Shown here: in pieces, positions 15,089 through 63,928 of the stretch | How positions within the stretch are numbered: the first letter of the stretch is position 1 | How the letters are laid out: each line of letters begins with the position of its first letter | Assembly: GCA_937958645.1 (NCBI GenBank) | Contig: CALGNI010000038.1 | Location: 3,647 to 67,646 of the forward strand | Length of the DNA: 64,000 nucleotides | From: Candidatus Absconditabacterales bacterium | GTDB taxonomy: Bacteria > Patescibacteriota > Gracilibacteria > Absconditabacterales > Absconditicoccaceae | Direction of reading: 5' to 3' | Notes under the pieces: model-generated | Seen by the model: the letters and a program-made list of their open reading frames with translations, nothing else | Databases searched by the model: none | What the model was told of the DNA's origin: nothing | Position numbers and translations under genes: made by a program

Positions 15089-15197
15089 AAAAAAAGATAA
15101 AAAAAGATTAATCCCTTTCGATAAGTCTAATATTCGCTTCATTTGCAAGGAGTAGTTGGTTGATATGAGTGCTAAGTTCTTTACAAAAAAGAAAAAA

Positions 15198-33031: not shown

Positions 33032-33105
33032 AGGGGGGTGGTGTAATGGGAACACAGAGGTCTTCGGCACCTCGGTTATCAGTTCAAATCTGATCCTCTC
33101 TGCCA
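33032..33105 (+). tRNA. tRNA-Arg (anticodon UCG), CCA encoded
   Basis: Hand-folded cloverleaf: acceptor agggggg/cctctct (with G3.U70 and G5.U68), U8, D stem gtgt/acac with loop aatggga, anticodon stem gaggt/acctc with loop cTTCGgc, variable ggtt, T stem atcag/ctgat with loop ttcaaat, discriminator g, cca. Confidence 0.8.
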
Positions 33106-40762: not shown

Positions 40763-40939
40763 GACTAAAGTGATGGTAAATACTTCACTAAGTATACCTG
40801 TATCTAGAAAAAATAGCAAAAAAACCATGGCCTGTTGCTATTTCCTAACAACACATACCACACTCAGGCTATTGACAAATTGATTTAAATAATTATTATA
40901 TAAACACTTCTCGATGTTGAGAAGTGCTAAAACAAAAAT

Positions 40940-43042: not shown

Positions 43043-43060
43043 ATGTTTTGATTTTTTATT

Positions 43061-44332: not shown

Positions 44333-44427
44333 GGAATGGACTTAGGGGGTGTGCGTGAGTGCATATGGTTTGATTTTTGATTTACTTAGTTTATGATGAA
44401 TGCATTCATTTATTTCCCCTATAAACT

Positions 44428-45456
44428 ATGATAATAGATCTCCATCAAGATTGGTCAGATAATAGTCTTACTACGACTCATAAGGATTTCTTTTCTAAGG
44501 AAGAAAATCTTCATGGCTGGAATATGGAATGAATGGACGCAGTAAATCATGCTACATTTGAAAAATTAAGATCATCAGGCATTGTTGCTGTCATAGGAGC
44601 GCTATTTATCGACCCGATCACAATGGAAGCGAGTGATCATTCATTTTCTCAGTGAAGACAACCCATCGAAGCTGCTTTGTATGAGCTACATCGTCACAAT
44701 AAGTTTTATGACTACGTAGTTTGAGCATCAGATGGAGAACTTCGTTTGATAGTATCAGGAAATGATCTGGATGAATGTATTCAAGAGAAGAAAATGTGAC
44801 TTATTAAGCATATCGAATGATATTATGTGCAAGATCCGTCAGGAAATATGGATGTGTTAGACCGCCTGTATGATCAGTGAATTAGATCGGTATGAATGAC
44901 TCGAAATATCAATAACAATTTAGCTCAAGCATCGAATGATGGAGAGCATACTCATTGATTGACTGAGTTGTGAAGAATCTTTGTAGAAACACTAATAAAA
45001 AAATGAATGATTCTTGATCTTGCTCATCTTTCGAGAACGTCAGTTGATGATGTGCTAGATATTGTCTCTTCTCCGGTTATGGTTTCTCATACTGCATTGA
45101 CCTGAGATAACGATAATCATAGATTTATCACTCCTGATCAAGCAAAGAAAGTAGCGGACAAGTGATGAATTATTTGATTAGCTGCTATGAAAAACAAATC
45201 TGATGAGTTTCCTCTAATCACACTTGATCATTATGGCGATCAAATAAAAACATTAATTAATTTGCTTGGAGAGGATTATGTCTGAATTTGAACGGATTTT
45301 GATTGATTGCCAAGTGAGTATGTGGTTGAATGATTTGATGATACGAGTAAATATCATCTAGTGCAAGAGCAGTTGCTAAAGAAATGACTCAAGCAAGCTC
45401 AAATTGAGAAAGTGATGTGATGAAATGCAAAGAGATTTATCCAGGCAGTATTATAA
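44428..45456 (+). CDS. membrane dipeptidase (peptidase M19) family protein
   Basis: 'IIDLHQD', 'LIKHIEG', 'GIRSVGMTRN', 'ILDLAHLS', 'VMVSHT', 'GIGTDFDG', 'VMGGNAKRF'. Confidence 0.75.
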
Positions 45457-45479
45457 ATATATAAAATTGTATGAAAAAA

Positions 45480-45506
45480 GAGTGAGACGTCTTCTCACTC
45501 TTTTTT
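45480..45506. terminator. bidirectional terminator between convergent genes
   Basis: gagtgaga/tctcactc stem flanked by A6 and T6. Confidence 0.75.
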
Positions 45507-45508
45507 CT

Positions 45509-46477
45509 TTATCAGGAGTATTTATATCACTTCCGTCTAGATTCAGCTTCAATATAAAGAATCACTACTTCTTGACCTACTTGCATATCATATGATGATA
45601 CTCAAAGGGATGTCTTTTTATCTATGATGCAAATAAGGTCAGGGAATGATGCTTCAAATCAAGAGCTAGAGATTTCCATATACTCGTTTTTGATGATAAC
45701 GTTTCGTTCAGTATTCTTGTCATCGAAAATTGATGCAGTTCACTGGAGGAATCATCACTTTTTGGTTATGTTTACCTGGTTGACTATTCACTGACTCACT
45801 ATCGTTCCTAGTGATGGCAAGATTTTTTCATCGTTTTCAATAGCCGCTCATACGAGAATACTTCTACTCAATGCTCATGCGCTTGCATGTTCTTTGAAGA
45901 TATTGGCTGTACAGATATGATCAATACAAATTAACGACCCTCAAGTTGTGGTTACCAATCTTCTCAGTTCTTTATCCGCTTTCTTGATATTTTGTTCTTC
46001 GAGGTAATGAATATGGAGATCTTTATCAACAGCGATGATGGGAAACACACTAATGCTAGCTAAGAGAAAGTTATCATATTGAAGTTCTGGCACAGCTCTT
46101 CCTCAAACAATATCAGCATCCACTAGGGGAATATTTGTCATTCAGCTCAAGCCAAGCACCATCATTTCAATTCCCGTTTCTACGGGAACTAGTCAGTGGA
46201 GATCCTGTTGATAGCGCTCATTGACATACTTGAGTCATGCTAGTGCTTGCTGTTTTATCGTGTCAGATACGGTTCAAGCAGGTCAAACACCATACACACA
46301 TGCAAGAAGCTGCGTATCATCAAACTCCTGAATTCCTTTTAGTTCAGGGTATGGAATCTTATCTTTTACGAATTTTTCTAACAATGATTCTTGGGTATCT
46401 ATCGAGAATCCTCATCATGTGCTAAATATTGATGCTCAAGCGATCATCTGTTTGCAGGTTTGATAATTAAGCTTCAT
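45509..46477 (-). CDS. DUF917 family protein
   Basis: 'GASIFSTGGGFS', 'VPVETGIEMMVLGLSGMTNIPLVDADIVGGRAVPELQYDNF'. Its start overlaps the upstream gene's stop by 11 nt. Ends TCC TGA TAA. Confidence 0.65.
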
Positions 46478-47537
46478 GAGTTGGGTTAGAGGTTAAAGTA
46501 GTTTTGAGGTAAGATCAAATGATGCTTTTGGTTAAGTTGACTGAGCTTTTAATATCTGCAAAATAATTAAACTCATCTTCTTGAAAGGTAGAATGTGAGG
46601 GGATATATCATGCAATCATTCATGGAACCTCACATCATAGTGATTTAATTGCCTCATCCGTTTGTATCAAAATTTTCATTTCATTTGTATTTTCGAGAGC
46701 CAATCAGAATCATTGTTCCATATTTTGAATATATGCAGCAATATAGCTTGCGTTCACAATATCTTTCAATGAGCTTGGCGGATTCATTTGGAAATATTGC
46801 TTCAAAAATGGATCTGTAATCTTTTCGCTCAGCTCTTGAACAGACGGTTTTTTTGATTGGGCTAGTTCTTGCTTGATATATGCTCAAATCTCAGCAAGAG
46901 GCTCTATTGTTTGCGTCTTTTCTTGTAGTGATTTTGGAACTCTTTTTTTGATTGCTTTGCTTACGTAGTTGGATTGAAGATCAATTTTTTCTATATACTT
47001 ATTCAGTAGATCAGGTCAAAGTAAAGGAGAATCTAGATAATACAAATAATATTCAACTCTTGGGATATGAAATGATACAGAGTTAATCATTTCTGGATTC
47101 ATTCATTCAAGTACTCCTTTTGGTATCCTACACAAATAATCAATATCATAAGGGCTCAAATTCGGGTTTCCAAGGATATCTATTAGCTGTCATTTACTTG
47201 GCAATTTACGAGGATCCGTGAGAATTACTTGATCTCAAGTTTCGTTTAGTCAGGTGAGTGTATTATTGCCAAACAAGCAAATTCAACTAATGACTGCAAG
47301 TTTTTCTCAAGGTGGAGGAGTTTTAGATATTCAGTTTTTTAGTCAACGAAAATGTCACGAAAATGCATTAGATTGAGTTTCTAAGCTGATATAGGTATCC
47401 TGTCCAGTTTTGCTAAAAGTAGTATCGTTTGATGATGGAAGATAGTCTTCCAGTGCTTCTACGTAATGAAGTTGTTTGTTTTTACTCTTGGTAGAGATGT
47501 TTTGTGGGGTATTACCGTTTCATGGTGTATTGATCAT
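46467..47537 (-). CDS. hypothetical protein, translationally coupled to DUF917
   Basis: 1071-nt table-25 ORF that joins track ORF 46681-46887 in frame. No confident family. A weak 'EQGFGLA' resemblance to QEGLA-motif proteins is not trusted. Confidence 0.45.
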
Positions 47538-47943: not shown

Positions 47944-48204
47944 ATGTTATTTCCAGAATCATTGAAATTAGTTACTGATACACTTTGGCGCATCAAAAAG
48001 GAAGATCTAGATTGAAGTCTAGAAGATCTTTTTACACCTTCAGAAATTATAGAGATCGCTGATAGAATACTAATATTAAAAGCCCTCAAGGAAGGGAAAA
48101 AACAAAGAGCCATTGCTGAAGAGCTATGATTATCGGTTACTACTGTTAGTAAAGGATCTAGAGTGTTGAAGTATGGGAGAAGAAAAATAGAGAAAGTGCT
48201 CTAA
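47944..48204 (+). CDS. Trp repressor family protein (YerC/YecD-like)
   Basis: 'TPSEIIEIADRILILKALKEGKKQRAIAEELGLSVTTVSKGSRVLKYG' matches the TrpR/YerC HTH pattern. 86 aa. Confidence 0.65.
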
Positions 48205-48270
48205 AAATTTTACCCGCATGTTTTAGTGTAGTAATACGATTTGATTATTTTTTTATAAAATATTTTAAAG

Positions 48271-49236
48271 ATGAAAAATACACCATATATTGAAAACGCT
48301 CATATAAATATTGAGCAAGAGTTTAGATTGCTTAATGATTCATGAGAACTTGTTATAGAAAAAGATGGGATGAGTTTGCCAGAGTATATTCACTATTCGA
48401 TAAAGCTAAAACCTGAATTAACTTTATTGTTGAAGCAATGATACATCCAAATACACCCAGAATTTAATAAAGATCAGTTTGAAGTTGCAAGCTATGGGAA
48501 GAATAGTTTTTCATCAGTGAAAGATATTATGCTTACGACATATACTTGATTGTCTGAAGTGCTCGCTGAGCAGTGAGAAACCATAGATTTACGTGTACTT
48601 CCACCTGAAGGACCCGCGATATGACATACTGAATATAAACCCTATTATCCATTGTTAGCTAAGAAAGTAATAGAACAAACTGGTGATAGTAATTCGATTA
48701 AGAAATTTGATATTACTTCATGTCAGTTCAATATTGATGATCCTGAGTTGACTCTGTATAGAGCAATTGCAGATGATTTTCATCAGCACGGATTTTTTAA
48801 TTCGAAGTATGGCTCTTTGAGATCGCCACATAGAGCAAAGATTTTCAAAGATATTATTGATAGAATTACAGAAACCTGAATGATATCTTGAGGAATTTAC
48901 CCTCCATATCTTGAGTGAGTCACACTAGAAGAACCTTGATTTCTACCATTTATGCCCCCAAGTTCCTATGATAGAATGTTACGTAATGATGAACTACTAA
49001 AGTATTTTCTTGATTGACCAAATACTCAACATTATTTAGAAATTAAAAGCAGCGACATTAACAATTCAGGACATTACCTTGAAATCAAACCCTTTGATTT
49101 ATGAGTAGAAAATCATGGACTAATTGAATCTGGGGACTGAAGTGAGATTATTTCAAAAAGATATGATACAATTTACAAATATTTAATTGATACTCATGAT
49201 GAATATGATAACAGAATACCTCAATCTGAGATCTAG
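48271..49236 (+). CDS. divergent carboxylate-amine ligase-like protein (GCS2-like, tentative)
   Basis: 'IEQEFRLLNDSGELV', 'IHPEFNKDQFEVAS', 'LEIKPFD' loosely follow YbdK/GCS2 motifs. Track ORF 48652-48879 is in frame. Confidence 0.4.
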
Positions 49237-49268
49237 TACATTAAAAGTTTTATTAAAAGATACTTTCC

Positions 49269-50078
49269 ATGATATACCCAAGAATAGAAACTATTAACTC
49301 TTGAGTCCCTTGACCTACCACAACAATTATCTGAGGAATTCATGGGAATGAACCAACGTGATTTGAGTTGATTCAGATGCTAAAAGATTCGTTATGTATT
49401 GATGCTGGAGTAGTAACACTAATCTCAGCTCATCATGAGGCAAAAGAAAAGAATGCAAGATTCATCGATAAAGATCTTAATAGAAGTTTTGGTAAGAGCG
49501 TAGACGAGACCATTGAGTCTCGTCTTGCTCAACTCATATCTCCATATATCACAAAGGCTAACTATGTACTTGATGTCCACAATACAGTAAAAAACTCCTC
49601 ACCGAGATTTTGTATTAGTGAACATGAGGAGTTTGCGCAGTTTATTGGTATTCCTTTTTATGTTTGATGATGCTGAGAGAAATTTATGTGAAGTACCGAT
49701 CAATTTGCCGATCGTGAGTGAGCAAAGTGATTTTGTCTGGAAGCTTGATGGATTCATGAGAGTAAAGACCACACTCAGTTTGCTTACGATTCGAGTATTA
49801 ATCTTTTGAAGTCTTTTGGTAACATAGAATGAGATCCGAACAATTATTGATCAAGCAAGAAGTTGGTAATGGATATAATGTATCACGCTACCTGAAATTA
49901 TGAAAGTAAACGTGAGTTTGCTGATTTCGATCCAGTAAAGGCAGGGGAAATGATTTGAGTTGATGAAGATAGACCGATCATGGCAACTGAAGATTGATTT
50001 ATCTTATTTTCCAGCATGGAAGCAAGAAGAGGTGAGTTGGGCTTTATGTTTTTGAAGGAGAGGGGTAATTCTAAATAG
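49269..50078 (+). CDS. succinylglutamate desuccinylase/aspartoacylase (AstE/AspA, M14-like) family deacylase 1
   Basis: 'IIGGIHGNEPTG', 'IDKDLNRSF', 'VLDVHNT'. Track ORF 49368-49667 is in frame. Confidence 0.7.
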
Positions 50079-50251
50079 TGAAGCTGAGTACACTTGAGAA
50101 TTAAAGTAAACTCATAGTACTTGATAAGTTAATGTTGTGTTAGTTTTTGCTGTTATTATTTTTAACAACAGATAATATATTATGTTATTGATTTTATGTT
50201 CTTTATATAAATAAATTCTAAGTCTAGTTATTTTATTCTCTTCTATTAAAA

Positions 50252-51961
50252 ATGCTCAATAATTCAAAAAATAACATCTTATGAAAGTATAAAAAGTATT
50301 TTCTAGAAGAATGAGAATGAAATGCTAGTGATGTAAAAAAATATTTTGATGGACTTTATGATAGAGTTTTTTCCAAGTTTCAAGAATGAAATCAAGCGTT
50401 AATGAAGAAAAATGATAATCAATCATTGCGTTATATTGATAGTATAAAAGATGAAACCTTCCCTGAAAAAGGATTAAACATTGATGAGGTCTTAGAAAAA
50501 ACAAGTAAGGCATTTTGATGAGCATTGAGACGACATTCAACTCAAACCGCGTATAACGTTTGACCTAGTCCAATTCTTCCTACTGTTGGTGTGAATGCAG
50601 TAGTAAACTTATTTAATCCTAACTGTTTAATGGATGAGGTTTGTTGAGACTTTATGGTGACTGAAAAAAAAGTAGTCAAATTTTTGAGTGATATCGCGTG
50701 AATAGATTACAATAAATCAGACTGAATGTCTACTTATTGATGAGCATGAACTTTAATGTATGCTATCAAGACTAGCCTTTGAAAGGTCTCTAGTACATCA
50801 TTTTCACAATGAATCCGTAATGATTATTACGTACTTACTTGAGAATCAAATCATTATTTTATCACAAATATATGCTGATTTCTTTGAATTTGAACAGATC
50901 AATGTATTAGGATACCTTCAATAGATCATGGAATTATGGATTTAGTAGAATTAAGATCAGTCTATGAATCCCTGCTTAAGGAAGATAAGAAGGTGATTTG
51001 TATAATAGCTAATTGATGAGAGACTATTAATCATGCAATTGATGATTTATCAGAAATAACAAAAATAATCGACAACCTCACTAAAATATATGAATCAAAC
51101 AGGCCCCATTTACATTTAGATAGTGTAAATTGACGATGTTGGTTAACATTTCAGTGATATGATTTCGAAGAAAATCAATTAAAGATCAATGAAATAGATT
51201 TAAGTAAAATTCGTAAAGCCTATACCTTACTTTCTAAAGTATACCTTGCTGACTCTTTTTCAGCAGATTTTCATAAAACATGACTATGTCCTTATACCTC
51301 AGCTTTTTATCTTGTTAAAAATTTTGAAGATTTAAAGCATATTCAATGAATTGAAAGTTATAAGAAGGATATTTCTCGATGAGAAGGAATTAATTTAAAA
51401 ACATCTATAGAGCATTCTAGATCTTGAACATGAATATTAAGTGCATATGTTTCAATATTAACAATGTGAAAAGAATGATTTCAAGCGTACTTGAGTACTT
51501 TATTCAATAGTTGAAGGAATATCAAGAACGTAATTTTAAATAAATATCCTGATAAGATTGAAATTGTAAATAAATTGTGAAATCGATTTGTTAATATTAT
51601 TGTACTTAAATTCTTTAACAATCAGCCTGAATTTGAAGATCTATGTAGGTCTAGCGATGAAATCAAATTGAAATACAATCAATTTGCTCGTTGATACTAT
51701 GAATTTTGTCTGTCTAAAGTTAGAGAATGAAATTCAATGTACCCATATTTATGATACATTAGTAATTATACACATTTAGGAGAAAAAACCTGATTGGTCA
51801 CTTTTAAGATCTATGGAATGTCAGTTAACTACACCAATAAAGATTATACTTATTTTGTGAAATCAGTGGTTCATTCGTTAAACGAATACAAGAAAACAAT
51901 GGCTAAATGATCAAATCGCAAGACTATGCTTACCAAAGAAAAAAGGCATACTTTAAAGTAA
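50252..51961 (+). CDS. group II PLP-dependent decarboxylase (aromatic amino acid/Tyr/Glu decarboxylase-like)
   Basis: 569-aa table-25 ORF with about 38 TGA. PLP-lysine motif 'SADFHKTGLCPY', and 'YGGAGTLMYAIK'. TAA at 51959. Confidence 0.7.
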
Positions 51962-51995
51962 AGGAGTAGTGCTATTTTAAATCTTATGACATAAT

Positions 51996-52766
51996 ATGGA
52001 TAAGATTATAGAATTTTATTGAACAAGATCTAAGAATGAGGTTGGTATTCTAAATACAGTTCTAGATGATCTGAATGAACTCTTAGTAAATGTTGATAGA
52101 TGAAATTCTCACAATATTTCATGTATATTATATTGATCTTTAGCAACCTATGACCAAACGAAAAATTCCGATATTGACGTAATGTTTATGAAGAACGGAA
52201 AATCATCTAAGGAATTGTTTGATCAATTGAAATGATGACTGATAGATATTTCAAAAAAAAACAAACTAGAAGTTGATGAAGAAGTCCCGTTCAAGAGTAA
52301 GTTGATATTCAGTCATAACGAAATTTTAGAGTCTTTGTTAGCAAAATGATTTCCAAACATAGATTGAAAAATAGAAGTTCCAAATATCATTTCAACTAAG
52401 GATCTTAGAAAAAAATCCACAAAAATTAGATTATGAACCAACATTATAACCACGCCAAATATTTGAATTTTCCATTCAGTAAGTGAAAAAGAATTTTATG
52501 ATCAAATAAAGTATAGATGATGATTGCTCTTACAAAGCTTGGCTAGAAACCTCTTTACACAAAATTTTAAAAATCAAAAGATCACTCAGAATGACCTTCT
52601 TGAAGTGTTGGCTACTAGCAATTGAAATGAATGAAGGAAGCATCTCTGATATAAAATTGAAAGGCCTTTTGTAAGAAAATATTTAGTTAACTTATTGGAA
52701 AAAAAGTACTCCAATCAGGAGTTAGATAGCATGGAAAATAGTTTATGAAGTCAAATATTTTTATAA
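51996..52766 (+). CDS. nucleotidyltransferase (Pol-beta superfamily) domain protein
   Basis: 'ILYGSLATYDQTKNSDIDVMF' matches the GS...D.D NTase motif. Confidence 0.55.
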
Positions 52767-52779
52767 TATACTTAAATTT

Positions 52780-53595
52780 ATGAAAATTAATTTACAAATA
52801 CTTTGATCTTGATGATCAATCCCTACGCCTAGAATATGATCAAAGAGTGAAATATCAAAATTGGCAAGAGAAGTCTGACATCCATATAAGAAGAACTCAA
52901 GCTGTCTGTGAATTCCTGAAATTCATGCACTTATTGATTGTCCCGAAGATATATCTGATTCATTAAATAAAATAGACTTTCCTAATGTAAAGCACTTATT
53001 CTTAACACATTGGCATCCTGATCATACATTTTGATTAAGAGTGTTGCTTTCAAGCGTATTCGATCCAATAGATAAGAAAATTGATGAGCCAATACAACTT
53101 TACTTTCCAAAAAAAGTTTATCAAGATTTAAGACAACATTACCCTTCAATTGATTATTTTGTTGATGAAATGTGATTTTGAGTTGTGAATTTCCTAGAGC
53201 ATTGAGAATCAGTAAATATTTGATGAGTTAGCATCACAACTATATGATATTCATGAGAATGATCATGGGTAAATTGATATTTAATTGAGTCAAACTGAAA
53301 GCGTGCTTTATATTCACCTTGTGAGACAATTTTATTCGAACAATTTGAAATTAATGATTTGGATATACTTATTACTGAGTGTTGAGTTTTTTCTTTTGAT
53401 AAGGTGAAAACTGAAATATCTTTTCCAAAAATGATCAAAAATATAGAGAGATTACAGCCAAAAAAAACGTATATAACCCATATTGAGGAAGTTGAATTAG
53501 CGAGATGGGGGTATGATTACTTGCAAGAAATGAAGGAAAAATATTCAGATATTCCTTTCGAATTCGCTTTAGATTGACTAAAAATAGACTTATAA
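52780..53595 (+). CDS. MBL-fold metallo-hydrolase
   Basis: 'ILGSGGSIPTP', 'LFLTHWHPDHTFGL' (HxHxDH). Confidence 0.7.
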
Positions 53596-53596
53596 C

Positions 53597-54955
53597 ATGT
53601 CAAAAAGTGTAACTATAGTCTGATGGGGAACAAGTGCAGCGATAGCTGCATTGAATTACTACAATGAATGATATAACATTGAAGTTTATACTAAGTGACC
53701 AGAACCTACGTTAGACAATATTTCATCATCGGATATTGACTTTTATGCTTCATCAATGACTTGATGAACTGATATTCAGCGTTTTATAACTTGAATTGAG
53801 TGAAATCCATGGAATTTTTGTGCTTTTAGTTCACACCAATGCGAAGACTGGTCTAAGATGTGGAAAACTACAATTTCCGAATGATGATGGTTAGAAAAAG
53901 AGGCCTCGCTTTATTCTAAAAAGATGCAAAATAAAATTAAAAATAGAGCTTTATTTTACAATAAAATGTGAATTGAAGAGCAAACTACTAACTATAATAA
54001 ATGGATTATTAAAAATAAGGAAAGTTTATCATTACGAAAAAAATGTATCATTGACTCACCAGAGCTATTTAAATGAACTGAAATACAGTGATTTGATTCT
54101 GGTGTGTTAAAACTCTTTTTGAATCAGAAATATTTTGAAAAAACATATTTCAAGTTCAAGAGACTTGATCTTTTAGCTAAAAAATTGACGTTTAAAAGTA
54201 TCGTAAACTGACATGAGATGTTTTGATTTCGAGAAAAATGAATAAATATATCTAAATTTACTTATCTATTGGTAAAGATTAAAGACCTTTTAATGTCAAA
54301 TTGAGTAAAATTTTATTTTGACAATGAAATTAAAAGCATTTCCTTAAATCGTAAAAAAATTATTGAATGAATAGTGTTGAGTTCATGAGAGGTAGTTCAT
54401 AATCAAAATTTTTCATTTCATTTGTGAGCTTATAATTCTAGTTCAAAAATTAATGCAGAGTTACAAGACATTGTTCCAGTTTGATGATTGTGGTCAATTG
54501 TTGAGATAGGAGACGAAGTCGATCCATTCTATCTTAAACATCCAATGAAACTTCACACGACTAAAGAAGGAGATATCTTCTGACGAGATATTAATATTTC
54601 CAGGATAGATCATCCAAATAAAAATTTATTTCTAGCATGATATTGATATATCGTGAGTGAGCATGCATGAAAACAGAACAGTGATATTGAATTTGCAAAA
54701 ACTAGACTTCATTCTCGATTTGAAACGGAGATTTGTAGACGGTTTAAGAAGAAAGATATTAAATCTATCAAACACATAGAAAATATTTGTTATAGGTCAT
54801 TTACACCAACGGACAGAGAGACATTATATGCATATGAAACATGAAAGTGATGAAAAGCAATATTCTGCTCAGGTTGAAATACTTGAAGCACTACAATTAG
54901 TTTTAAAGATGCAAAACTATGTATTGACATATTGAATAATAAAGTTAAGAACTAA
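53597..54955 (+). CDS. FAD-dependent oxidoreductase (DAO/amine-oxidase-like)
   Basis: N-terminal dinucleotide fold 'VTIVGWGTSAAIAALNYYNEGYNIEVY'. C-terminal 'FCSGGNTGSTTIS'. The start lies 1 nt after the MBL stop codon. Confidence 0.55.
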
Positions 54956-54980
54956 TTACTTTTATCTTTAAGTGTATCTC

Positions 54981-56291
54981 ATGGAATGAAATGACAAAAA
55001 TTTACCTAATGGTTATGAATCTACTCCTGACGATGAGAAAGTTACATTATGAAGTAAGAATTCTTTATTAGATTCATTACAATTGAATCGAGAGGAATAT
55101 TTGAACAATGCAATAGATACTGCAGAATCAGAGAAAAAAAAGGCATATTTTATGAGAATAAAAAAATTATTAGGATTGAAGGATTTATCTAAAGAACCAT
55201 GAAATCCTATCGCATTAATCATTGATAGTATAAAAAATGATGAATTTTATAGTTCTTTTGAAGATATTGAGGCTTCAGAAATTGCTTCAGAATGGGCGAC
55301 GTTTGATGTATTTAATTTTCCTGAGGACCATGTTGCTAGGAGAACATCAGATAGTTATTTCTTGTTAAAATCTAATAATGTTAGTGAAAGTATATTGCTT
55401 AGACCTCATACTTCGATCGTCCGATATGACTATTTAATGACGATGGATTGAAAGAAAAAACTAGAAGAAGAAGGGGAGATTAAGATATTATCATCTTGAA
55501 AAGTATATCGTGTTGATACTTTGGATCCAACTCATCATGAATGTTTTCATCAAATTGACTGATTGAGAATTGTTAAAAAGGACAAAGAAATTATTACACA
55601 AGAAACATTAAAAGATGTTTTAACAGTTACAATTAAGGCAGTTTTTGGTGACGATGTAGAGTTTAAATTTTATGAGGATAGCTTTCCATATACAGTTGAG
55701 TCATTAGAAGCATATGTTAAATTTGAGGATAAATGGATAGAAGTTTTAGGCGCATGAATAGTGCATCCTTCAGTTTTAGAGAAATTATGAATTAATTCTG
55801 ATGAATATAACTGACGGGCTTATTGATTTTGAATCGAGAGACTCGCTATGGCATTAAAGAAAGTGCCTGATATTAGAATTTTTTGGTCAGAAGATGAGAG
55901 AGTAACTAATCAGCGATGAAACTTTGAGCCGTATGAAGAAATCAGTAAATTCCCACCAGTTTACAAAGATATATCTTTAGTTGTTCCTAAAAATAAATTT
56001 GTTGAGGATACTTCTGAATGAGCTGATCCTTTTGATTTAAATGAAACAACAGAGTCAAATTTCTTTGAATTTTCAATTATTGCTAGAAATGTATGATGAG
56101 ATCTTATTGAAGCAGTAGAAATTACTGATATATTTAAGAATGATGCTAAATTTTGAGAGGAGTTGATGTCTATAACATTAAGAATTACGTTTAGATCATT
56201 AGAAAGAACTCTTACAAACGAAGAAATCAATAAAATGTACTTTGATATTAGACATGAAATTGAAAACTGATTAGGGTATGAATTAAGATAG
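54981..56291 (+). CDS. monomeric phenylalanyl-tRNA synthetase-like protein (PheS catalytic core fused to an FDX-ACB domain)
   Basis: 'FNFPEDHVARRTSDSYF', 'LLRPHTS', motif 2 'GKVYRVDTLDPTHHECFHQIDGL', motif 3 'AYGFGIERLAMAL' (TGA at 55824 and 55830), then 'FPPVYKDISLVVP...ITLRITFRS' (FDX-ACB). 436 aa. Confidence 0.8.
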
Positions 56292-56331
56292 AAACGATTT
56301 TTAGTTTGTCTTTAGTGTTAACATAGATTGA

Positions 56332-57138
56332 ATGGATGAAAATATCATACGTTCTCTAATAGGACGATGAATGACCGATAAGGAAGCCATAATATACTAC
56401 GCGCTTCTGGAACTATGAAGTTCTCCTGCGAGTTCAATTTCGAGATATTTAAATCAAAATAGAACTACAGTCTATACAATACTAAAAAGAATGAAAGAGA
56501 GATGAATTGTTCAAGAGTTAAGATCAAAAAAAACTTTATACTATTCAGTTATCGAGCCCGATAAGTTATTTAGAGACCTTTCCAATAGAGCGACAGCATT
56601 TAGCTCTATAATTCCTGAGTTATTAAACTTAAGTAAGTCTTTTGATTCTAAGCCAAAAATTCAATATTTTGAATGAAAAAAATGATTTCACTTTCTCATG
56701 GAAGATATTTTGGCAAGTAGATCTGATGTTAGATCTTTGCGAGGATCATCTCCGTTTTATACAGATGAGGAATTCATTTCTCGACTATCAAAATCTGCGC
56801 AAAAATATAGAGAAACTTTGCATAATAATTGATTTGTCTCTTATAGAATTTTCTGAATTAGTACTTTAAATACCCACATTGGGGATACATTAAAAAATGA
56901 TAAGTTATTCCGTAGAGAAATGAGAATAGTTGAAAATCCTATATTTGATATTAAAACAGATTTGGTGATATATGCAAAGGATAAGGTTTCATTATCATTT
57001 TTTGATGACAACTGAATTCCACATATTCTAATAATTACTAATGTAGCTATTTATAAAACTATGCTGAGCATCTTTAAGTTTCTTTGGTGAAGTTGAATAG
57101 AATATTCAGATGATTTTTTCCTTTGAAAGAAAAGATAA
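56332..57138 (+). CDS. TrmB-family transcriptional regulator
   Basis: 'GMTDKEAIIYYALLELGSSPASSISRYLNQNRTTVYTILKRMKERGIVQE'. Track ORF 56642-56869 is out of frame. Confidence 0.7.
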
Positions 57139-57214
57139 AGCGCTCAAGTAGTTGTTATATGAGATCGTTGACTATTCTGTATGTGCTTTTTTGAATTGAT
57201 TTGAACAACTTCTT

Positions 57215-57485
57215 TTATTGCGTCGCACTGAAGTGATGAGGTAATATTCCGAATATATATTAAATCAGAAATATCAAAACTTTTTTATAAGTTATATATG
57301 ACTAAATAATTCTACTTCTTCGTGATAGTAATGCTTTCCCAGACTTTCGAACGAAAACAAAGGTCTATCTTCGAGGAACGAGAAGAAAAATTGGGCGAAT
57401 AGTTTCATTTCATGAAACCGCTAATCAAAGATTAGTACTCCGTTCGCTTGCGACGGAGCAAGTCCAATCTTAGATTTTTGTTTTT
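57215..57485 (+). mobile_element. structured element copy B (rearranged, intergenic)
   Basis: The core 57313-57485 aligns with copies A and C and carries an extra hairpin insert. The 5' hairpin module (57215-57255) is present but inverted and displaced by about 57 nt. Confidence 0.65.
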
Positions 57486-57546
57486 ACTTCATTGCAAATT
57501 TGAGTATCTATTATATAGATATGTTGCGATTTATAACAGTCATATT

Positions 57547-58287
57547 ATGATTCAAAAAGTACTACAAGATATTTGATTTAGTGATAGGGAGGCTAAAATT
57601 TATTTAGCTTGACTTGAAACATGACTTGCTCCAGCTAGTAAGATTGCTAAATATGCTAATGAAAGAAGAGTGACAACATATCAAACTTTGTTACAAATGT
57701 CGAAAAAACAATGGGTAAAACAGGTAGTTAAGAATAATGTGTCTCAATACGAGATGGTTTCACCAAAAGAGTTATGAACTATTTATACTAAGAGAGTTTG
57801 ATTATTAAACGAAAAAATACCAGAGATGGTTGCGTTAATGAACAACTTTTCTTCGAAACCTATTGTGAAATATTATCAATGAAGAGAACAGCTAAAAGAG
57901 CTATTTAATAAGATCGTTTTTGATTGATTTAAAATGAATCAGGATGATTATTTTTTAAGTTTTCTATGAACTTGAGACGTAGATAAAGAATTTTCTAATC
58001 GGCTTTCAACTGAATTTAAAAGATACAGACTCACTTGTCCTACTAGATCAAGATTTCTCCTTTCAGAGTGAGATCATGAATATTTAAAATATAATATGAA
58101 ACATCACGAATTTCGTTTGGTAAAAGACCCTATATTTAAAATTGCAAATCAGATAGTTATTTATGGAGATCTTAAAGTAGCTATTTTGATGTATAACGCT
58201 GACGAATTATCTTGAGTAGTTATTCAAAGTCAAAGTTTTCATGATGCTCTAAAATGAATATTTTATACTATTTGGAACGTGCTTTAA
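57547..58287 (+). CDS. TrmB-family transcriptional regulator
   Basis: 'GFSDREAKIYLAGLETGLAPASKIAKYANERRVTTYQTLLQMSKKQWV'. 246 aa. Confidence 0.7.
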
Positions 58288-58438
58288 GAATTCAAAACTT
58301 ATTAAATTTGTTTTGTTGTTTATTTTTACAACACGTAGCTTTTAAAAACCTTGTTATTAAATAAATCTCTACTAATATGAACTTTAATACTACATTGAAG
58401 TTTTTTTAGATAGTATTTATTTGCTCATATCAATTCAA

Positions 58439-59203
58439 ATGAAGCTTACAAAAAAAAGTTATGAACGTGAATCTCATAGTATTTGGAGGGCAATGTATAC
58501 TATGCAGATGGATACAATCAAAAAGTATGATTGCGTTTCTAAAGAAATTTTGAAATGAATTCACAAGATCGGTTTCGATCCCAAAAAAATACCTAATGCT
58601 CGTAATATATCTAGAAAATTAATATGATTAACATGATGGTCTCTTTGTGATGCAACTAGTCCTTTTATGACACATGATGATTGGTTTTCGTGTTTGATAA
58701 ATAAGAAATTTCCTGTTACCAATTATATTCGTAAACATAAGGATATACTCTATACTCCATTGCCAGATATGTTTCACGAATATTTTTGACATATGCCTCA
58801 AATGTCACTTGACTTCTTTGCTAATTTAGAGTATAAAATGGCTAGAATTCATCAGAATGCAATTTCATTAGATCTTAAGATAAAATTATATGATTTCTCA
58901 TGGTGGACTATTGAGTACTGAGTACTTATGGAAGATTGAATTCCAAAAGCAGTCTGAGCATGATTGTTATCTTCTCCTTGAGATTTGCGTGATTTTGTTG
59001 ATTGAAAATTTGAACTAAAAAGATGAACTCTTGCTTCTTTGATATCTCATAAGCCAAGTCCACATCAACAGCATAAATTTCTTTTCTATTTTGAATCACT
59101 TCAAGAGTGGGATACATTGCTAGATGAATACGTTGCGTTTTCAAAGAAACAATCTAAAGTAAAAGAATGATTGCCCTCTGGAAGGGTAATTAGTGATGAA
59201 TAG
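58439..59203 (+). CDS. phhA: phenylalanine-4-hydroxylase (aromatic amino acid hydroxylase family)
   Basis: 'PLPDMFHEYFGHMP' (iron His pair), 'WWTIEYGV', 'GAGLLSSPGD'. Confidence 0.8.
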
Positions 59204-59232
59204 TGATTTTAGTTATTTACTGATCTAATTAA

Positions 59233-60375
59233 ATGGAAAACGTTAATGCAAGTTGATACATAAATAAGAATGTCGAAATTAGAAATGACAAAAACATTAT
59301 TCAATTGTCGTTGTGACGTAATCCTTTAGGAATGCATCAAGCTTTGAAAGATTTTTATAAATCTTGAGAAAACTGACTTCTTATTCCATCTGAATCATAT
59401 TGAGATCCAAGTTTAACAGCTTCGAAATCGCTTATTGTAGAATGATTGTGATTGCAAGATGTGACTAATGATCAAATATTACTCGATTGAAATTGAAGTT
59501 ATGGTATGTGAGATGAGATAACACGTATTTTGGCAAATCAATGATTCAAAACTATAACAGTTTTGCCATACTCATTTCCAAATGTATGAGAACGAGCGAA
59601 AAGACATAAAGTACAGTACAAGAGCTATTGAGAAGAGAAAGATTCAATACAAGAAAATTTTGATAAATTGTTGAATAGCTCTAATAATTCTTTTATCGAG
59701 AGTATAGTCTATATTGATTTTCCAAATAATCCAACATGATTTAGTGTAAATGTTGAAAAACTTTACGATTTGGTAACCAAAGTTAAAAAATCAGGTTGAA
59801 TTGTCTTCTTGGACTGAGCATTTTGAGAATACAATGAAGATTTTTCACTAATAATATCGGAAGTTGTAAGAAGATGATGAATTGTTATCTGATCTACTTC
59901 AAAAATGCATTGAATTCCTGATATGAGAATTGGTCGATGAGTTCTCCCAGAGGACTTAGTTTGAAAGACAGATTCGTTGGTATTTTGAATTAATCATTTT
60001 ACAAAAGTGACAATAAAAAAACTCTTTGAACAAGATGAAAATAATGAATCAATTTCATCACTTCATATTCAAGATTCTATACAACACAATACTAAAGTTA
60101 ATAAAATCTTAACCCAAGAGCTTGATAGGTTGTGATATACTGTTCTATCATCAAATTTGCAAGTACCGATTCAAACAGTAATATCGCATATTCATGAGGA
60201 TTTATATACTGTTCTGAAAAATGAATGAAAGATTGCTACTGAATCACTGCATCACTACAATAGCACGTTACTTGATTCTAAAAAATGATATGAGGAGACT
60301 TGAGTGCGCATGCTGACTCCACATGAAGATCAGTTAGATTTGGTTATAGAAAGATTTAAGAAAATAAATAAATAA
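59233..60375 (+). CDS. class I/II PLP aminotransferase (histidinol-phosphate/aromatic aminotransferase-like)
   Basis: 'YIDFPNNPTGF', 'GSTSKMHGIPDMRIG' (PLP Lys). Starts 30 nt after the phhA stop. Confidence 0.7.
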
Positions 60376-60411
60376 ATTTTGATGAACTTAGTTTTATTCT
60401 GTATTTATTAG

Positions 60412-61827
60412 ATGAAAGAAACATACTGAGCAGAAATAGAATTTTTCTCTACTAATAGCGATTGAAAATTAACATGAATTGACGCAGCATGATATGTTAA
60501 TAACTCACTAAATGATTCATCAAGCATGAAATTACATCATGATTCTTGTACGCATTTACTTGAGTTGAACTGAATCGTTTCTGAGGATTTGTCTCTAATC
60601 TTGAGTCAAATTGTGAATGACGTAGATGAGGCAATTAGATATGTTCATAACAAGGATCTTCATGTGCTGAATTCTTCAACACATCCAACTATGACTCATG
60701 CTGAAGCTTATCAAAATAATATTCGTAAGCCGATATATGCTTTATTAAGGCCTGCATCTCATGAAAATGATGTAAATATTCAGTCAGCATTACAGTCAAA
60801 TCATAGAAATTGGAAGCATGAACTCTCTTCATTACATGCTGGTATTCAACCATGGAATTCAATTGAAATAGACTCACTTCAAGAATCATACAATTCATTA
60901 CTTGCTACAGATTTCTTGATTCGTTATTTATCAGCAAATAGCCCATTTTTTGAAGGAAAAATTCAATGATGATTAGATAATAGATGGAGAATGTACGATC
61001 AAGAAAAGTGAATGTTATCAACCTCGATTTATAGTGACGAAACTAGTTGACTGATAAAAAAATATAATCATGATGAAATTACTCTTTCAAAATATCTTGA
61101 TGGTGTATTTTCTCAAAGCAATTTATTTTGAATATGAACTAAGAAGAGTATGTTTGTTCATCAATCACAAAATAAAATTTATGAAGTATTTTGAGATTCA
61201 GGAAAAGAGAAATTTTTGGACATAAATACTTTAAAAACACATACTTTAGATCCATTTGAATCATTCTCTTTTAATGAGCTGGCAAGATTTATACCATATT
61301 TCACTTCATTTTGAATTAGATTAGTTTGAGGAGAAACTATCACTTGAGAAGATTTTAAGCTAACGATGAAATATATACAAGAAAAAAATGAAACTAATCT
61401 GTTACGTATGTTTAAGAAGTATTGAATCAAATTTGCAGTTGAGTGAAGATGATGATCAACGGTGATGCCTGAATGAGATGATTATTCACTTATGTTATTG
61501 CCTTTAATACTCCAATCATATGCTTTAAAGGAGTCCTCTGCTGTAAATAAACGGATAAATCAGCAGCAATGATGATGGGACACGATCAGTAAATTAAATA
61601 AATCTGTTCTAGATTGATGAATTTCTGAAGAGTATACAGAATTTGCTTTGTGATTAATGGAAGTATTATTCGATTCTACTCAAGAATTGTGAGATTCTTC
61701 AGGGTTAATTAACCAATCAGTAGAAAAAGCAAAGGATATGATTAGACTCAATGAAAATAAGGCTCAAAGAGACATTAAGCTTTCAAAAGGTAGTGTTGAT
61801 AAATATACTGAGATGAATTTACTATAG
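60412..61827 (+). CDS. glutamate-cysteine ligase family 2 (GCS2) type carboxylate-amine ligase
   Basis: 'YGAEIEFF', 'LLELN', 'SLHAGIQPW', 'LSANSPFFEGK', 'AVEGRGG'. Track ORF 60589-60969 is in frame. Confidence 0.6.
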
Positions 61828-61836
61828 TATAGGCTT

Positions 61837-62952
61837 ATGATTATAAAATCTTGTGAAATCAGAGTTATATCAGTACCAATGAAGCAATCACTTCTTGTAT
61901 CTTTTGGTGAACTTAAAGAGATTCAAACATTAATTATCGAATTAAAAGATGAGGATTGAAATATTTGATATGGAGAAAGTATTTTAGTGCCATTTCTATC
62001 TTCTTCATTTACGAGTTTTGATGTGTGAAGAATTGTTGCAAAAAAGTATTTAAAACCACTTGTGCAATGATATGAGATTGATGATTATGAAGACCGGAAA
62101 AAAACAATAAGTAAGTTTTCAAAGCACTTAGATCAGATATATTGATATGAAATGGTGAAAGCTTGATTTAATAATGCTTGTATTCATTTGTTGGCAAAAA
62201 GAAAATGACTGTCAGTTTTTCAACTATTCGATGTCAATAAGTCAGAATTTAATGCGCAAGAATCCATTTCAATATGAGATTTTGACTCTATTTCAGCTGA
62301 ATTAGATATATTGAAGAAAAAATGATACACCTTTGTTAAAATAAAAATATGAGATAATAGTGACCTAGATTTGCTATCGACTTTAATCAAATCAAATCCT
62401 TCACTTAAGATTTGAGTCGATGCGAATGCTTGATTCAATAGGTGAGATACTGATTCGCTGCTATTATTTGCGAAAAATAGTTGAGTAGCTTTTATTGAGC
62501 AGCCATTCTGAAAAGAAAGGCTTTTTGACCATGCTCAACTCCAACTATGATTGAAATGTTGAGTGAGCTTAGATGAATCAATAATAACAATTAACGATCT
62601 TAGTGATGCCATTAATTTAGTTTCTTGTAGAATGATAAATATAAAAATTTGAAGAGTCTGATGATTGATGCATTGAATTAAATTGTATGAGCTTGCAGAA
62701 CGTAACCATATTGATGTACGAGTTTGATGAATGTTAGAAACCTGAATTTGAAGAATATATAGTCTTTGCTTATGAGCGCTGATCCAGAATGAAGTTTGAC
62801 ATGATATTTCTGAAGTAAATACTCGATATGAACAAGATATTGTGAAAAAATCATACAAAATAGAAGAAGGAAAATTGAAAATACTGAATTTAACTAAAGA
62901 TATCGAAATTGATTTTGAGGTTTATGAAAAATATACTATTGAAATCTTTTAA
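61837..62952 (+). CDS. enolase-superfamily enzyme (OSBS / N-succinylamino-acid racemase / dipeptide epimerase subgroup)
   Basis: 'FVKIKIG', 'IGVDANAGF', 'FIEQPF', 'VSLDESI', 'INIKIGRVGG', 'GGMLETGIG'. Confidence 0.75.
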
Positions 62953-62971
62953 TCTTAACCTAATCTAAAAA

Positions 62972-63928
62972 ATGAATTCAATACTTACCTCTGTACACAA
63001 TGAAGTGCCTTGAGTACTGCATCTGGATTCTTGAACACAGTGACCTGTATTCTGAGTTAGCTCATGCGTTCATTGATGAGAAGTGACTTGAATAAGAATT
63101 ATTGAAGAATTTCTTAAGAGTAATAAAGAATGAAGAATAAAATTAATAAAATGATCGTTAATGTTAATTCTCGCAAATGTAGATGCGTATAAGTCATTTA
63201 TAGATGTTACTTCTTCGTTAGATAATACTATGACTAAGGAGAAATTAGAGGCAGTGAAAAAATATAGATATCTAGATGAAAATATGAATCGCTGTACAGC
63301 TGAAGATAACTTGAATGTATCCATATCAAGAGAAGTGAAAAGAGTGAATGAATTATCAAAAACATTAGAAAATATTGATATCTTGTTGGATATACATACC
63401 ACCAGTACACCTTCAGACTCAATTATGATTTATTCTTCTTGAATGGGTCGTGAAAAATATTCTGATATATGTAACACAAAAGAACATCTGATAGATATTA
63501 CTGATCATCTAGCTTGAAAACCATTTTTTGATATGGTAGAGCGTAGTGGAGGAGTATGACTAGCAATTGAGTCTTGATATGAACTAGATGATCAATGATA
63601 TAAAGTATGATTTGAAAATCTAATTAGATTGCTAGATGAGGAATGAATGATAGAAGTAGAATGATGAGTCGATCAATTTTACTCTCCTAGAAAAGAAAAT
63701 AGAAAAATACAGATCTATGATCATATTGTCTTCAGAAATAATGATTTCTCCTCAATTTATCTTAAAGATAAGCCATTGCATCATGGACAAATTCTTCCGG
63801 AAGGGACGTATATGTGATTTGATTGATTAGCTGATATATTCTTGAGTGAGGTGTCAATTATAATTATGCCGAATGTAGGAGTAAAATATATATGAGAAGA
63901 GTTTTGTTTTTTGTGAAGATTAGTCTAG
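62972..63928 (+). CDS. succinylglutamate desuccinylase/aspartoacylase (AstE/AspA) family deacylase 2
   Basis: 'GVSSCVHGGEVTG', 'LDENMNR', 'LLDIHTTS'. Track ORF 63161-63442 is in frame. Confidence 0.65.

Follow-up and report, generated by a model that had tools for sequence, protein, structure and literature searches.

Gene content and genetic code of the locus

We analysed a 64,000-nt stretch of DNA from a Candidatus Absconditabacterales bacterium of the Gracilibacteria (contig CALGNI010000038.1 of assembly GCA_937958645.1), hereafter referred to as the window, and focused on a run of 15 plus-strand genes that spans positions 47944-63928 under translation table 25. We read the run as a mosaic rather than as a single pathway. 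Its last four genes (g55-g58; g numbers denote the predicted genes of the window) encode a HisC-like aminotransferase, a putative ATP-dependent carboxylate-amine ligase, a predicted N-acyl-amino-acid racemase and a zinc deacylase, and they constitute a conserved functional module, because the same families co-occur in independent, very divergent loci. An earlier reading of this DNA (the original prediction) had described 15 co-oriented, tightly spaced genes, and its coordinates proved exact. Thirteen of its 15 family labels were confirmed by Pfam, NCBIfam and PDB searches, while the labels of g45 (a GCS2-like ligase) and g50 (a flavin-dependent oxidoreductase) were not.

Translated with table 11, the region splits into open reading frames (ORFs) of less than 130 aa, and the ORFs of the window add up to 20.6 kb, a total that grows to 103.7 kb once TGA is read as a sense codon. 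TGA encodes Gly (code 25) and not Trp, because all three Gly of the invariant class II synthetase motif 3 in g51 (G-R-A-Y-G-F-G-I-E-R-L) are TGA and because the TGA sites of g56 and g57 align mainly with Gly, not Trp, of standard-code homologs. In public protein databases, the proteins of the window are translated by table 4 and carry W at every TGA site.

The successive gaps within the run measure 66, 32, 173, 34, 13, 1, 25, 40, 408, 151, 29, 36, 9 and 19 nt; ten of the 14 are 1-40 nt long, and the remaining four are those of 66, 173, 408 and 151 nt. Upstream of the cluster, about 59% of the ORFs in the window lie on the plus strand, and 15 consecutive plus-strand genes would be expected by chance with a probability of ~4e-4. 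Guanine-cytosine (GC) skew is positive over the entire window, and leading-strand bias therefore contributes to the co-orientation of the 15 genes. An identical Logan contig (L001; L numbers denote contigs and loci used for comparison) shows that the same-strand run extends 7 genes past the window. Scans for promoters and terminators gave counts no higher than the shuffled expectation, and no plus-strand terminator was detected within any gap. Genes g47-g58 also form a compositional block, with a GC content of 0.294 (0.28-0.31 for its genes) vs 0.364 in the first 48 kb of the window, and with TGA making up 74-95% of Gly codons vs 0-93% in the remaining ORFs of the window; within its first 27 kb, this fraction does not exceed 0.60.

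Enzymes of the module

The gene g57 (61837-62952, plus strand) encodes an enolase-superfamily enzyme and was placed by PDB matches and motifs in the N-succinylamino acid racemase/o-succinylbenzoate synthase (NSAR/OSBS) subfamily. Its best PDB matches (1WUF, 1WUE, 3QLD, 2ZC8 and 1SJA; best E-value 3.5e-48) are all NSAR/OSBS structures, and the catalytic set is complete, comprising KxK (VKIKI), D (VDAN), E (IEQP), D (LDES) and the second Lys (NIKIGRVGG). The score on TIGR01928 is 197.7 bits, slightly under the cutoff of 200.65, and the homolog in locus L016 reaches 338 bits on the same model; the closest homologs outside its own genome are only 32-34% identical. The K-x-G-R motif is present as K-I-G-R in g57 and in the homologs of L012, L015 and L016, and the second-shell Arg (R266 in Amycolatopsis numbering) is conserved across the NSAR/OSBS subfamily (PMC12006748). 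Judged by these sequence features, g57 is a bona fide NSAR/OSBS-subfamily protein with a predicted racemase function. Members of this subfamily have been assigned their function by genome context, a men operon indicating OSBS and a D-amino-acid conversion operon indicating NSAR (PMC12006748). Pfam and NCBIfam scans found no men genes in the 64-kb window or in the following 6.7 kb.

Ending 9 nt upstream of g57, g56 (60412-61827, plus strand) belongs to a very rare family of putative ATP-dependent carboxylate-amine ligases with the fold of glutamate-cysteine ligase (GCL) and GCS2 proteins. Pfam GCS2 matches g56 at 32.4 bits (cutoff 21) over the N-terminal residues 6-100 only, and matches three of 11 members of the family. 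When g56, g45 and g58 were searched as single sequences against the PDB, no useful match was obtained, and a word-indexed search with g56 returned nothing beyond g56 itself. An exhaustive HMMER search with g56 recovered at least 12 other cluster representatives among 1.84 billion, a lower bound given that the query was the database copy with Trp for 26 Gly, which reduced sensitivity. A profile of the family matches the YbdK structures 1TT4 and 1R8G. The AlphaFold model of one family member, P0245 (26% identical to g56; pLDDT 77.5, pTM 0.83), has the plant Glu-Cys ligase 2GWC as its best Foldseek match (E-value 2.9e-9, TM-score 0.70), followed by YbdK 1TT4/1R8G, the gamma-glutamylcysteine synthetase (gamma-GCS) 2D32 and glutamine synthetases. 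Because the Pfam GCS2 match lies above its cutoff, the profile matches YbdK and the P0245 model points to the same fold, we regard the fold of the g56 family as confirmed, at the level of a structural model, to be of the GCL/glutamine synthetase type.

On TIGR02050 (the YbdK/GshA equivalog), g56 scores 20.1 bits vs a cutoff of 176.4, P0245 and P0247 score similarly and P0246 gives no match; no curated NCBIfam model names the family in any of these four proteins. Like YbdK, the GCS2 ligases and plant-type glutamate-cysteine ligase, the g56 family has the ligase fold, an N-terminal GxExE-type motif and an 'ANSP' region, and presumably also activates a carboxylate with ATP before attack by an amine. 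The two groups share only ~10-14% identity in structural alignments, and the family has motifs of its own (TYGGExE, GRGWxHE, IQPWNS and ANSP), of which GRGWxHE and IQPWNS set it apart from YbdK and GCL, as well as extra C-terminal helices. It is also genomically linked to a racemase, a linkage not known for YbdK or GCL. We propose g56 as a candidate for the N-acylating step of the module, which would be the first clue to the function of a ligase family that is essentially unannotated.

The aminotransferase g55 (59233-60375, plus strand) is a HisC-like fold-type-I enzyme (Pfam Aminotran_1_2, 6.6e-17; NCBIfam hisC 80 bits, under cutoff). It is homologous to the aminotransferases beside NSAR genes in L016 (2e-18), L006 (4e-11) and L012 (7e-10), which are closer among themselves than to g55. 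A HisC-like aminotransferase is thus a recurrent companion of NSAR operons.

At the end of the run, g58 (62972-63928, plus strand; Pfam AstE_AspA_cat, 1e-09) is the second of three AstE/AspA-family zinc deacylase paralogs. The first, g46 (49269-50078, plus strand; AstE_AspA_cat, 3.4e-17), has a weak Peptidase_M99 match and shares 30% identity with the third, encoded beyond the downstream end of the window. In an alignment of the three paralogs, the zinc ligands HxxE...H and the catalytic Glu are invariant, and a profile built from them matches structures of succinylglutamate desuccinylase and aspartoacylase (2BCO, 3CDX and 2GU2). We propose that g58 may act as the N-acyl-L-amino-acid hydrolase of the module.

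Recurrence of the module in divergent loci

A g56-family ligase lies immediately upstream of an NSAR/OSBS gene in four of the five assessable loci (the window, L012, L015 and L016), with a spacing of 9-29 nt or an overlap. Locus L012 (code 25, GC 19%) contains an AstE-like C-terminus, an aminotransferase, the ligase and NSAR. Two of the loci use the standard code: L015 (GC 49%) contains the ligase, NSAR and an M20 hydrolase, and L016 (GC 41%) contains the ligase and NSAR followed by convergent genes for M20, an aminotransferase and a group II pyridoxal phosphate (PLP) decarboxylase, with all five genes inside 7.5 kb. The fifth locus, L017/L018 (standard code), has the ligase adjoining a glutamine synthetase and no NSAR. 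Two further contigs, L013 and L014 (GC 21-25%), are fragments terminating within the ligase, and a full-length ligase of the L012 type (P0254) is present on another contig (11.6 kb, NCBI).

A deacylase is found in all four ligase-NSAR loci, but its family differs, being AstE/AspA in the two code-25 loci (in L012, the C-terminal end of a g58-like gene) and an M20 hydrolase of the DapE/ArgE type in the two standard-code loci. The M20 protein of L016 is a DapE/ArgE-type desuccinylase or deacetylase. Gene order was further compared with L006/L007, which holds the closest standard-code relative of g57 and reads aminotransferase, Gcn5-related N-acetyltransferase (GNAT), NSAR and M20 hydrolase. The window reads aminotransferase (g55), GCL-fold ligase (g56), NSAR (g57) and AstE/AspA (g58). 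By family assignment, the two orders are identical, with two non-orthologous replacements. The GNAT genes adjoining NSAR in L006 and L008 have no homolog in the window.

Separately, a low-molecular-weight phosphatase/ArsC-like gene (CxxNxxRS) adjoins the NSAR module in L006 (5300-5956) and L012 (3246-3479). These two loci, one standard-code and the other code-25, are unrelated, and no counterpart of the gene was found in the window.

A candidate route for D-amino acid conversion

On balance, and with moderate confidence, we favour the reading that g55-g58 encode an ATP-dependent, coenzyme A (CoA)-independent variant of an acylate-racemise-deacylate route, embedded among housekeeping and unexplained genes. 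Characterised NSAR enzymes and AstE act on N-succinyl amino acids, and a gamma-glutamyl group is structurally close to a succinyl group. In the first step, g56 would spend ATP to attach a small carboxylate to a D-amino acid at its alpha-amino group. Succinate or the gamma-carboxyl of glutamate would be the most plausible donor, because NSAR enzymes use N-succinyl amino acids, AstE is a desuccinylase and GCL-fold enzymes activate the gamma-carboxyl. The racemase g57 would then interconvert the N-acyl amino acid through a two-lysine, metal-stabilised enolate mechanism, and g58 would strip the acyl group from the L-isomer, drawing the equilibrium to L. Finally, g55 and a glutamate dehydrogenase encoded past the window end would pass the amino group on, and the L-product would enter nitrogen or carbon metabolism. 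The decarboxylase g47 is a possible accessory of the module. In this manner, a host-dependent Gracilibacterium could recover D-amino acids, from the cell walls of its prey for instance; speculatively, an M19 dipeptidase and a LysA-like decarboxylase encoded upstream of the run fit this theme of peptide or cell-wall salvage.

The steps assigned to g56-g58 parallel the NSAR route for irreversible D-to-L amino-acid conversion in Geobacillus kaustophilus (Sakai et al. 2006, Biochemistry 45:4455, as cited in PMC12006748). As far as that route is summarised in the citing paper, both systems have an NSAR/OSBS racemase flanked by a potential N-acylating enzyme and a metal-dependent N-acyl-amino-acid hydrolase, with no men context, and the GNAT-NSAR-M20 operon order of L006 is matched by the module of the window. 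On the same summary, the GNAT-type succinyl-CoA:D-amino-acid N-succinyltransferase would be replaced in the window by the ATP-dependent g56, and the M20 N-succinyl-L-amino-acid hydrolase by AstE/AspA in the code-25 loci. The unit in the window additionally includes a HisC-like aminotransferase, and its host is a code-25 bacterium from the candidate phyla radiation (CPR). In the searchable literature, we found no mention of NSAR combined with a GCS2 or carboxylate-amine ligase.

A second relative of the proposed scheme is the DgcN/DgcA pathway of D-glutamate catabolism, which likewise follows an acylate-racemise-deacylate logic with an enolase-superfamily racemase (N-acetyl-D-Glu racemase, NF042940). 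A D-Glu or D-Asp substrate would fit the downstream glutamate dehydrogenase of the window and the preference of AstE/AspA for N-acyl-Glu and N-acyl-Asp. However, g57 scores 90 bits on the DgcA model (cutoff 400), as opposed to its far higher NSAR/OSBS score, and there is no DgcN-type acetyltransferase in the window.

A bolder form of the favoured reading, which we regard as plausible but hold tentatively, is that the g56 family would be an unrecognised class of GCL-fold ligases that make N-succinyl- or gamma-glutamyl-D-amino acids with ATP and replace the succinyl-CoA-dependent GNAT, giving a CoA-independent stereo-inversion. It would reside in a laterally acquired, low-GC island together with the Phe hydroxylase, the decarboxylase and the phenylalanyl-tRNA synthetase (PheRS), and would let a predatory or episymbiotic CPR cell convert host D-amino acids to L-amino acids. 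If true, such a route would suit organisms without a tricarboxylic acid cycle. The NSAR/OSBS subfamily is a textbook case of function assignment by genome context, and a new recurrent context, in which a GCL-fold ATP-dependent ligase stands in for a CoA-dependent acyltransferase and, in two loci, AstE/AspA stands in for M20, would extend the D-to-L pathway. The metabolism of Gracilibacteria is very sparse (PMC6744442). For CPR biology, the module would offer a concrete route by which a metabolically minimal, host-dependent bacterium could use D-amino acids, which are abundant in host cell walls.

Several observations weigh against the favoured reading. The TIGR01928 score of g57 falls short of the cutoff, and the closest relatives of g57 with a known structure, from Listeria and Enterococcus, are considered to act as OSBS in vivo. 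The fold was modelled for P0245, a distant relative, and not for g56 itself. The census of the ligase family was made with a query of reduced sensitivity, and protein databases probably cover code-25 genomes poorly or in fragments. Locus L017/L018, the sole counter-example, shows that the ligase-NSAR linkage is not universal, and in L012 the aminotransferase and ligase are truncated where they join. A mosaic gives no account of the 1-40 nt spacing of g47-g52, and PheRS is probably co-transcribed with the decarboxylase, the nucleotidyltransferase, the metallo-beta-lactamase (MBL)-fold hydrolase and g50. Lastly, which acyl group is donated, which amino acid is used, in which direction the pathway runs and what it does for the cell are all inferred here.

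Alternative readings of the run

The module might instead run biosynthetically, such that an L-amino acid is acylated and racemised and then released or kept as an N-acyl-D form for the cell wall or as a secreted metabolite. Because NSAR catalysis is reversible, only the stereospecificities of ligase and hydrolase would decide the direction. Three AstE/AspA paralogs, together with a nearby gene that is weakly GNAT-like, hint at several acyl-amino-acid substrates. We nevertheless consider this direction unlikely, given that characterised AstE, AspA and DapE/ArgE enzymes act on N-acyl-L-amino acids, which is established family knowledge, and that the aminotransferase beside the module in four loci and the glutamate dehydrogenase after g58 fit the use of an L-product.

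The original prediction suggested that the genes could act together to form or recycle an aromatic amine or amino acid bearing an N-acyl or gamma-glutamyl group, through hydroxylation of Phe to Tyr, transamination, decarboxylation, ligation, epimerisation and deacylation. On such a single-pathway reading, the PheRS-like protein would have a dedicated role. Co-orientation, tight spacing and the distinctive shared composition of g47-g58 speak for such a pathway, either for all 15 genes or for this block, as does the grouping of decarboxylase, aminotransferase, M20, ligase and NSAR within L016. The evidence from the individual genes makes it quite improbable. The PheRS-like g51 (54981-56291, plus strand) is a single-chain protein with a class II core and an FDX-ACB domain (Pfam tRNA-synt_2d, 6.4e-57; FDX-ACB, 2.5e-17). 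Its two-domain architecture is that of mitochondrial-type single-chain PheRS (TIGR00469; 180 bits vs a cutoff of 258) and of the 'PheS-related mystery ligase SrmL' (NF051887; 207.7 vs 300), and the latter, though under cutoff, is its best NCBIfam model, which would suit a dedicated role. Unlike mitochondrial-type PheRS, however, g51 is a bacterial protein that is found widely among Gracilibacteria, with 1,756 homologs of the same architecture (51-64% identity among those listed), and those named by their source are Gracilibacteria or 'gcode 4'. In addition, motif 3 is canonical, and the neighbourhoods of three relatives (L002-L005) share nothing with the cluster of the window. Because of this wide orthology and the non-conserved neighbours, we exclude PheRS from the pathway, and g51 is best read as the housekeeping PheRS of its lineage. 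Across Gracilibacteria-type genomes, a single-chain enzyme of ~410-450 aa seems to be the usual form of PheRS. A literature search found nothing relevant on SrmL or on single-chain PheRS in CPR.

The hydroxylase g54 (58439-59203, plus strand) is a bacterial-type pterin-dependent Phe-4-hydroxylase (Pfam Biopterin_H, 2.3e-30; 158 bits on the NCBIfam phenylalanine 4-monooxygenase model, cutoff 247). Its best PDB matches are the Colwellia structures 2V27/2V28 and, from Chromobacterium, 1LTZ; the residues of its iron triad (H, H, E) align in PDMFHEYFGH and TIEYG, and most simply g54 would make Tyr from Phe. The region resembles Pseudomonas phhABC in having the catalytic domain and iron triad of a bacterial Phe hydroxylase and in the aminotransferase that follows the hydroxylase (phhC). 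It differs in that g54 is under the equivalog cutoff, the aminotransferase, which is HisC-like, goes with the NSAR module, and phhB is missing; no pterin-recycling (PCD/PhhB-like) ORF was found in the cluster or its gaps. Among 185,579 GTDB species-representative genomes, which do not include the genome of the window, a single relative was found, in a Berkelbacteria metagenome-assembled genome (MAG). This homolog (L010, 9926-10738; 36% identity) stands alone amid housekeeping genes, between miaA and maf. Pterin-dependent hydroxylases are thus sporadic in CPR genomes, and g54 is probably an ordinary neighbour of the module, as are PheRS and the regulators.

Opening the low-GC, high-TGA block, g47 (50252-51961, plus strand) encodes a divergent group II PLP-dependent decarboxylase of 569 aa (Pfam Pyridoxal_deC, 38 bits, cutoff 27). 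The nearest NCBIfam families are PanP, acting on aspartate, and diaminobutyrate decarboxylase, and not aromatic decarboxylases; PDB matches are spread over decarboxylases of diaminobutyrate (DABA), Tyr, Trp, Glu and cysteine sulfinic acid (CSA). The 545-aa group II decarboxylase beside the module in L016 has the same top two NCBIfam families. A decarboxylated amine, having no alpha-carboxylate, could not be a substrate of NSAR under the enolase-superfamily mechanism.

Two TrmB-family regulators lie between PheRS and the hydroxylase. The first, g52 (56332-57138, plus strand; Pfam TrmB, 3.9e-13), is 39% identical to g38 and 28% to the second, g53 (57547-58287, plus strand; TrmB, 5.3e-09), which has g38 and g52 as paralogs. 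By sequence similarity, these genes are part of a paralog family also present elsewhere in the window. We infer that g53 may possibly be a local regulator of g54-g58. The third TrmB-family regulator of the window, g38 (40007-40828, minus strand), has TGA for 13 of its 14 Gly codons and in this resembles the low-GC block, though it lies 10 kb outside.

Of the single pathway, therefore, the ligation, racemisation, deacylation and transamination functions of g55-g58 stand, with L016 adding a decarboxylase, whereas PheRS, the TrmB genes and the hydroxylase fall away. The proposed N-acylated amino-acid conjugate came close to the mark, and the aromatic theme derives solely from the hydroxylase and the housekeeping PheRS. 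Where no recognised pathway had been seen, the NSAR route for D-to-L conversion provides a parallel for g56-g58. PheRS, which had been counted as a pathway member, groups with more than 1,700 single-chain Gracilibacteria PheRS with unrelated neighbours, as an ordinary housekeeping orthologue; for this gene, that is the outcome which the original prediction had named as speaking against it. Conservation of the gene set across Gracilibacteria MAGs did not emerge: the collections searched contain no close relative of g50, g54, g56 or g57, and g45 and g48-g50 are absent from all related loci compared.

Recycling of murein peptides is very unlikely. In this scheme, g57 would be an L-Ala-D/L-Glu-type epimerase and g58 an MpaA-like amidase, as in ycjG-mpaA of E. 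coli. The muconate-lactonizing enzyme (MLE) subgroup does include dipeptide epimerases, the AstE/AspA fold is related to M14 carboxypeptidases (compare the weak Peptidase_M99 match of g46), and an M19 dipeptidase and a LysA-like diaminopimelate decarboxylase lie upstream at 43-45.5 kb. Yet the L-Ala-D/L-Glu epimerase models give g57 no more than 76.9 and 48.2 bits, well below its NSAR/OSBS score, and PDB dipeptide epimerases match at 1e-17 or weaker. All of its best structures are NSAR/OSBS, the K-x-G-R motif of that subfamily is present, and the tightly linked ligase would be left without a role.

Chance juxtaposition of unrelated genes on the leading strand of a compact genome is highly improbable as an explanation of the whole run. 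The positive GC skew, the preponderance of plus-strand genes in the window and the non-conserved neighbours of PheRS and the hydroxylase are what it would predict. Against it, a family of ~13 representatives among 1.84 billion adjoins NSAR/OSBS in four of five loci that differ in genetic code and range from 19 to 49% in GC. Chance is thus excluded for g55-g58, and is possible for the rest of the run.

To our knowledge, Gracilibacteria have no respiratory quinones. That g57 is the menaquinone enzyme MenC (o-succinylbenzoate synthase) amid unrelated neighbours is the least credible reading of all and can practically be set aside: the best curated model and the source annotations of homologs bear the name o-succinylbenzoate synthase, and the Listeria and Enterococcus relatives are considered OSBS in vivo, but no men genes lie within 70 kb, four independent loci couple the NSAR/OSBS gene to a ligase and a deacylase, and Gracilibacteria metabolism is sparse (PMC6744442).

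Remaining genes, a repeated non-coding element and flanking regions

The run opens with a TrpR/YerC-YecD-like small helix-turn-helix regulator of 86 aa (47944-48204, plus strand; Pfam Trp_repressor, 3.7e-14; NCBIfam yecD_yerC, 34.6 bits, cutoff 42.2). The next gene, g45 (48271-49236, plus strand; 321 aa), could be placed in no family by Pfam, NCBIfam, PDB or PADLOC searches. We rejected it as a second GCS2 ligase, in view of the absence of any match in Pfam at E ≤ 10, NCBIfam or the PDB and an hhalign probability of 0.25% against the g56 family. Behind the decarboxylase lie g48 (51996-52766, plus strand), a borderline Pol-beta-superfamily nucleotidyltransferase (NTP_transf_2, 21.3 bits, cutoff 21; Polbeta, 26.5, cutoff 26.9), and g49 (52780-53595, plus strand), an MBL-fold metallohydrolase (Pfam Lactamase_B_2, 6.4e-14) whose NCBIfam matches (RNase Z, PhnP and similar) are weak and all under cutoff. 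The 452-aa g50 (53597-54955, plus strand) has only an N-terminal dinucleotide-binding motif (GxGxxA) and no Pfam or NCBIfam match; its residues 1-47 resemble kynurenine 3-monooxygenase in the PDB (E-value 0.008), and JGI metagenomes yielded a single relative, a fragment with 27% identity. A defence-system origin of g45 and g48-g50 was also considered and found no support in PADLOC, which gave only generic nucleotidyltransferase-motif matches for g48.

The 408-nt gap between g52 and g53 (57139-57546), a probable operon boundary, holds one copy of a repeated non-coding element of ~200 nt. By blastn, the other two copies lie at 24286-24475 (reverse orientation; 84-91%) and 26719-26859 (73-81%), so that the three copies are 73-91% identical. 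The copy at 57 kb has a 47-nt sub-block inverted and a 36-nt insertion. The consensus fold has 42 pairs, eight of them with compensatory changes, as derived from only three sequences, and Rfam gave no match for the element. The ORFs g24 and g27, which overlap the two other copies, are probably spurious.

With regard to composition, the g47-g58 block could reflect lateral acquisition from a lower-GC code-25 lineage, yet PheRS lies inside it. Several genes have no TGA codon at all, namely g21 (ribosomal protein L1), g11, g14, g36 and g39 in the window and a Biotin_lipoyl protein downstream (L001, 11781-12761). The glutamate dehydrogenase gene directly after the block (L001, 6704-7936) likewise has 38 Gly codons, all GGN, and zero TGA. 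Such uneven use of TGA for Gly may stem from differences in expression, or from genes having been transferred recently out of standard-code donors.

Immediately upstream of the run, g41-g44 (43043-47537) encode the LysA-like diaminopimelate decarboxylase (243 bits, cutoff 298), the M19 membrane dipeptidase (2.6e-54), a DUF917 protein resembling thiohydantoin desulfurase and a weak DUF3196 protein, and thus add to the enzymes that process amino acids or peptides in a lineage whose metabolism is known to be sparse. Downstream and on the same strand (L001, 6704-9940) are a divergent ELFV-type glutamate/amino-acid dehydrogenase, which starts 146 nt after g58, a GNAT-like protein and the third AstE/AspA paralog, followed by four more genes. 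The weakly GNAT-like protein (260 aa; RGRGVASKLY motif, E-value 0.004) is encoded ~1.3 kb past the window end. These three downstream genes may belong with the module. Elsewhere in the window, g1 (102-3836) encodes a 1,244-aa protein, g13 (14069-15142, minus strand) encodes a Gly/Ala-rich repetitive membrane protein with (GSVASGAVDAA)n-like repeats, and a tRNA-Arg(TCG) at 33032-33105 is the sole RNA gene detected.

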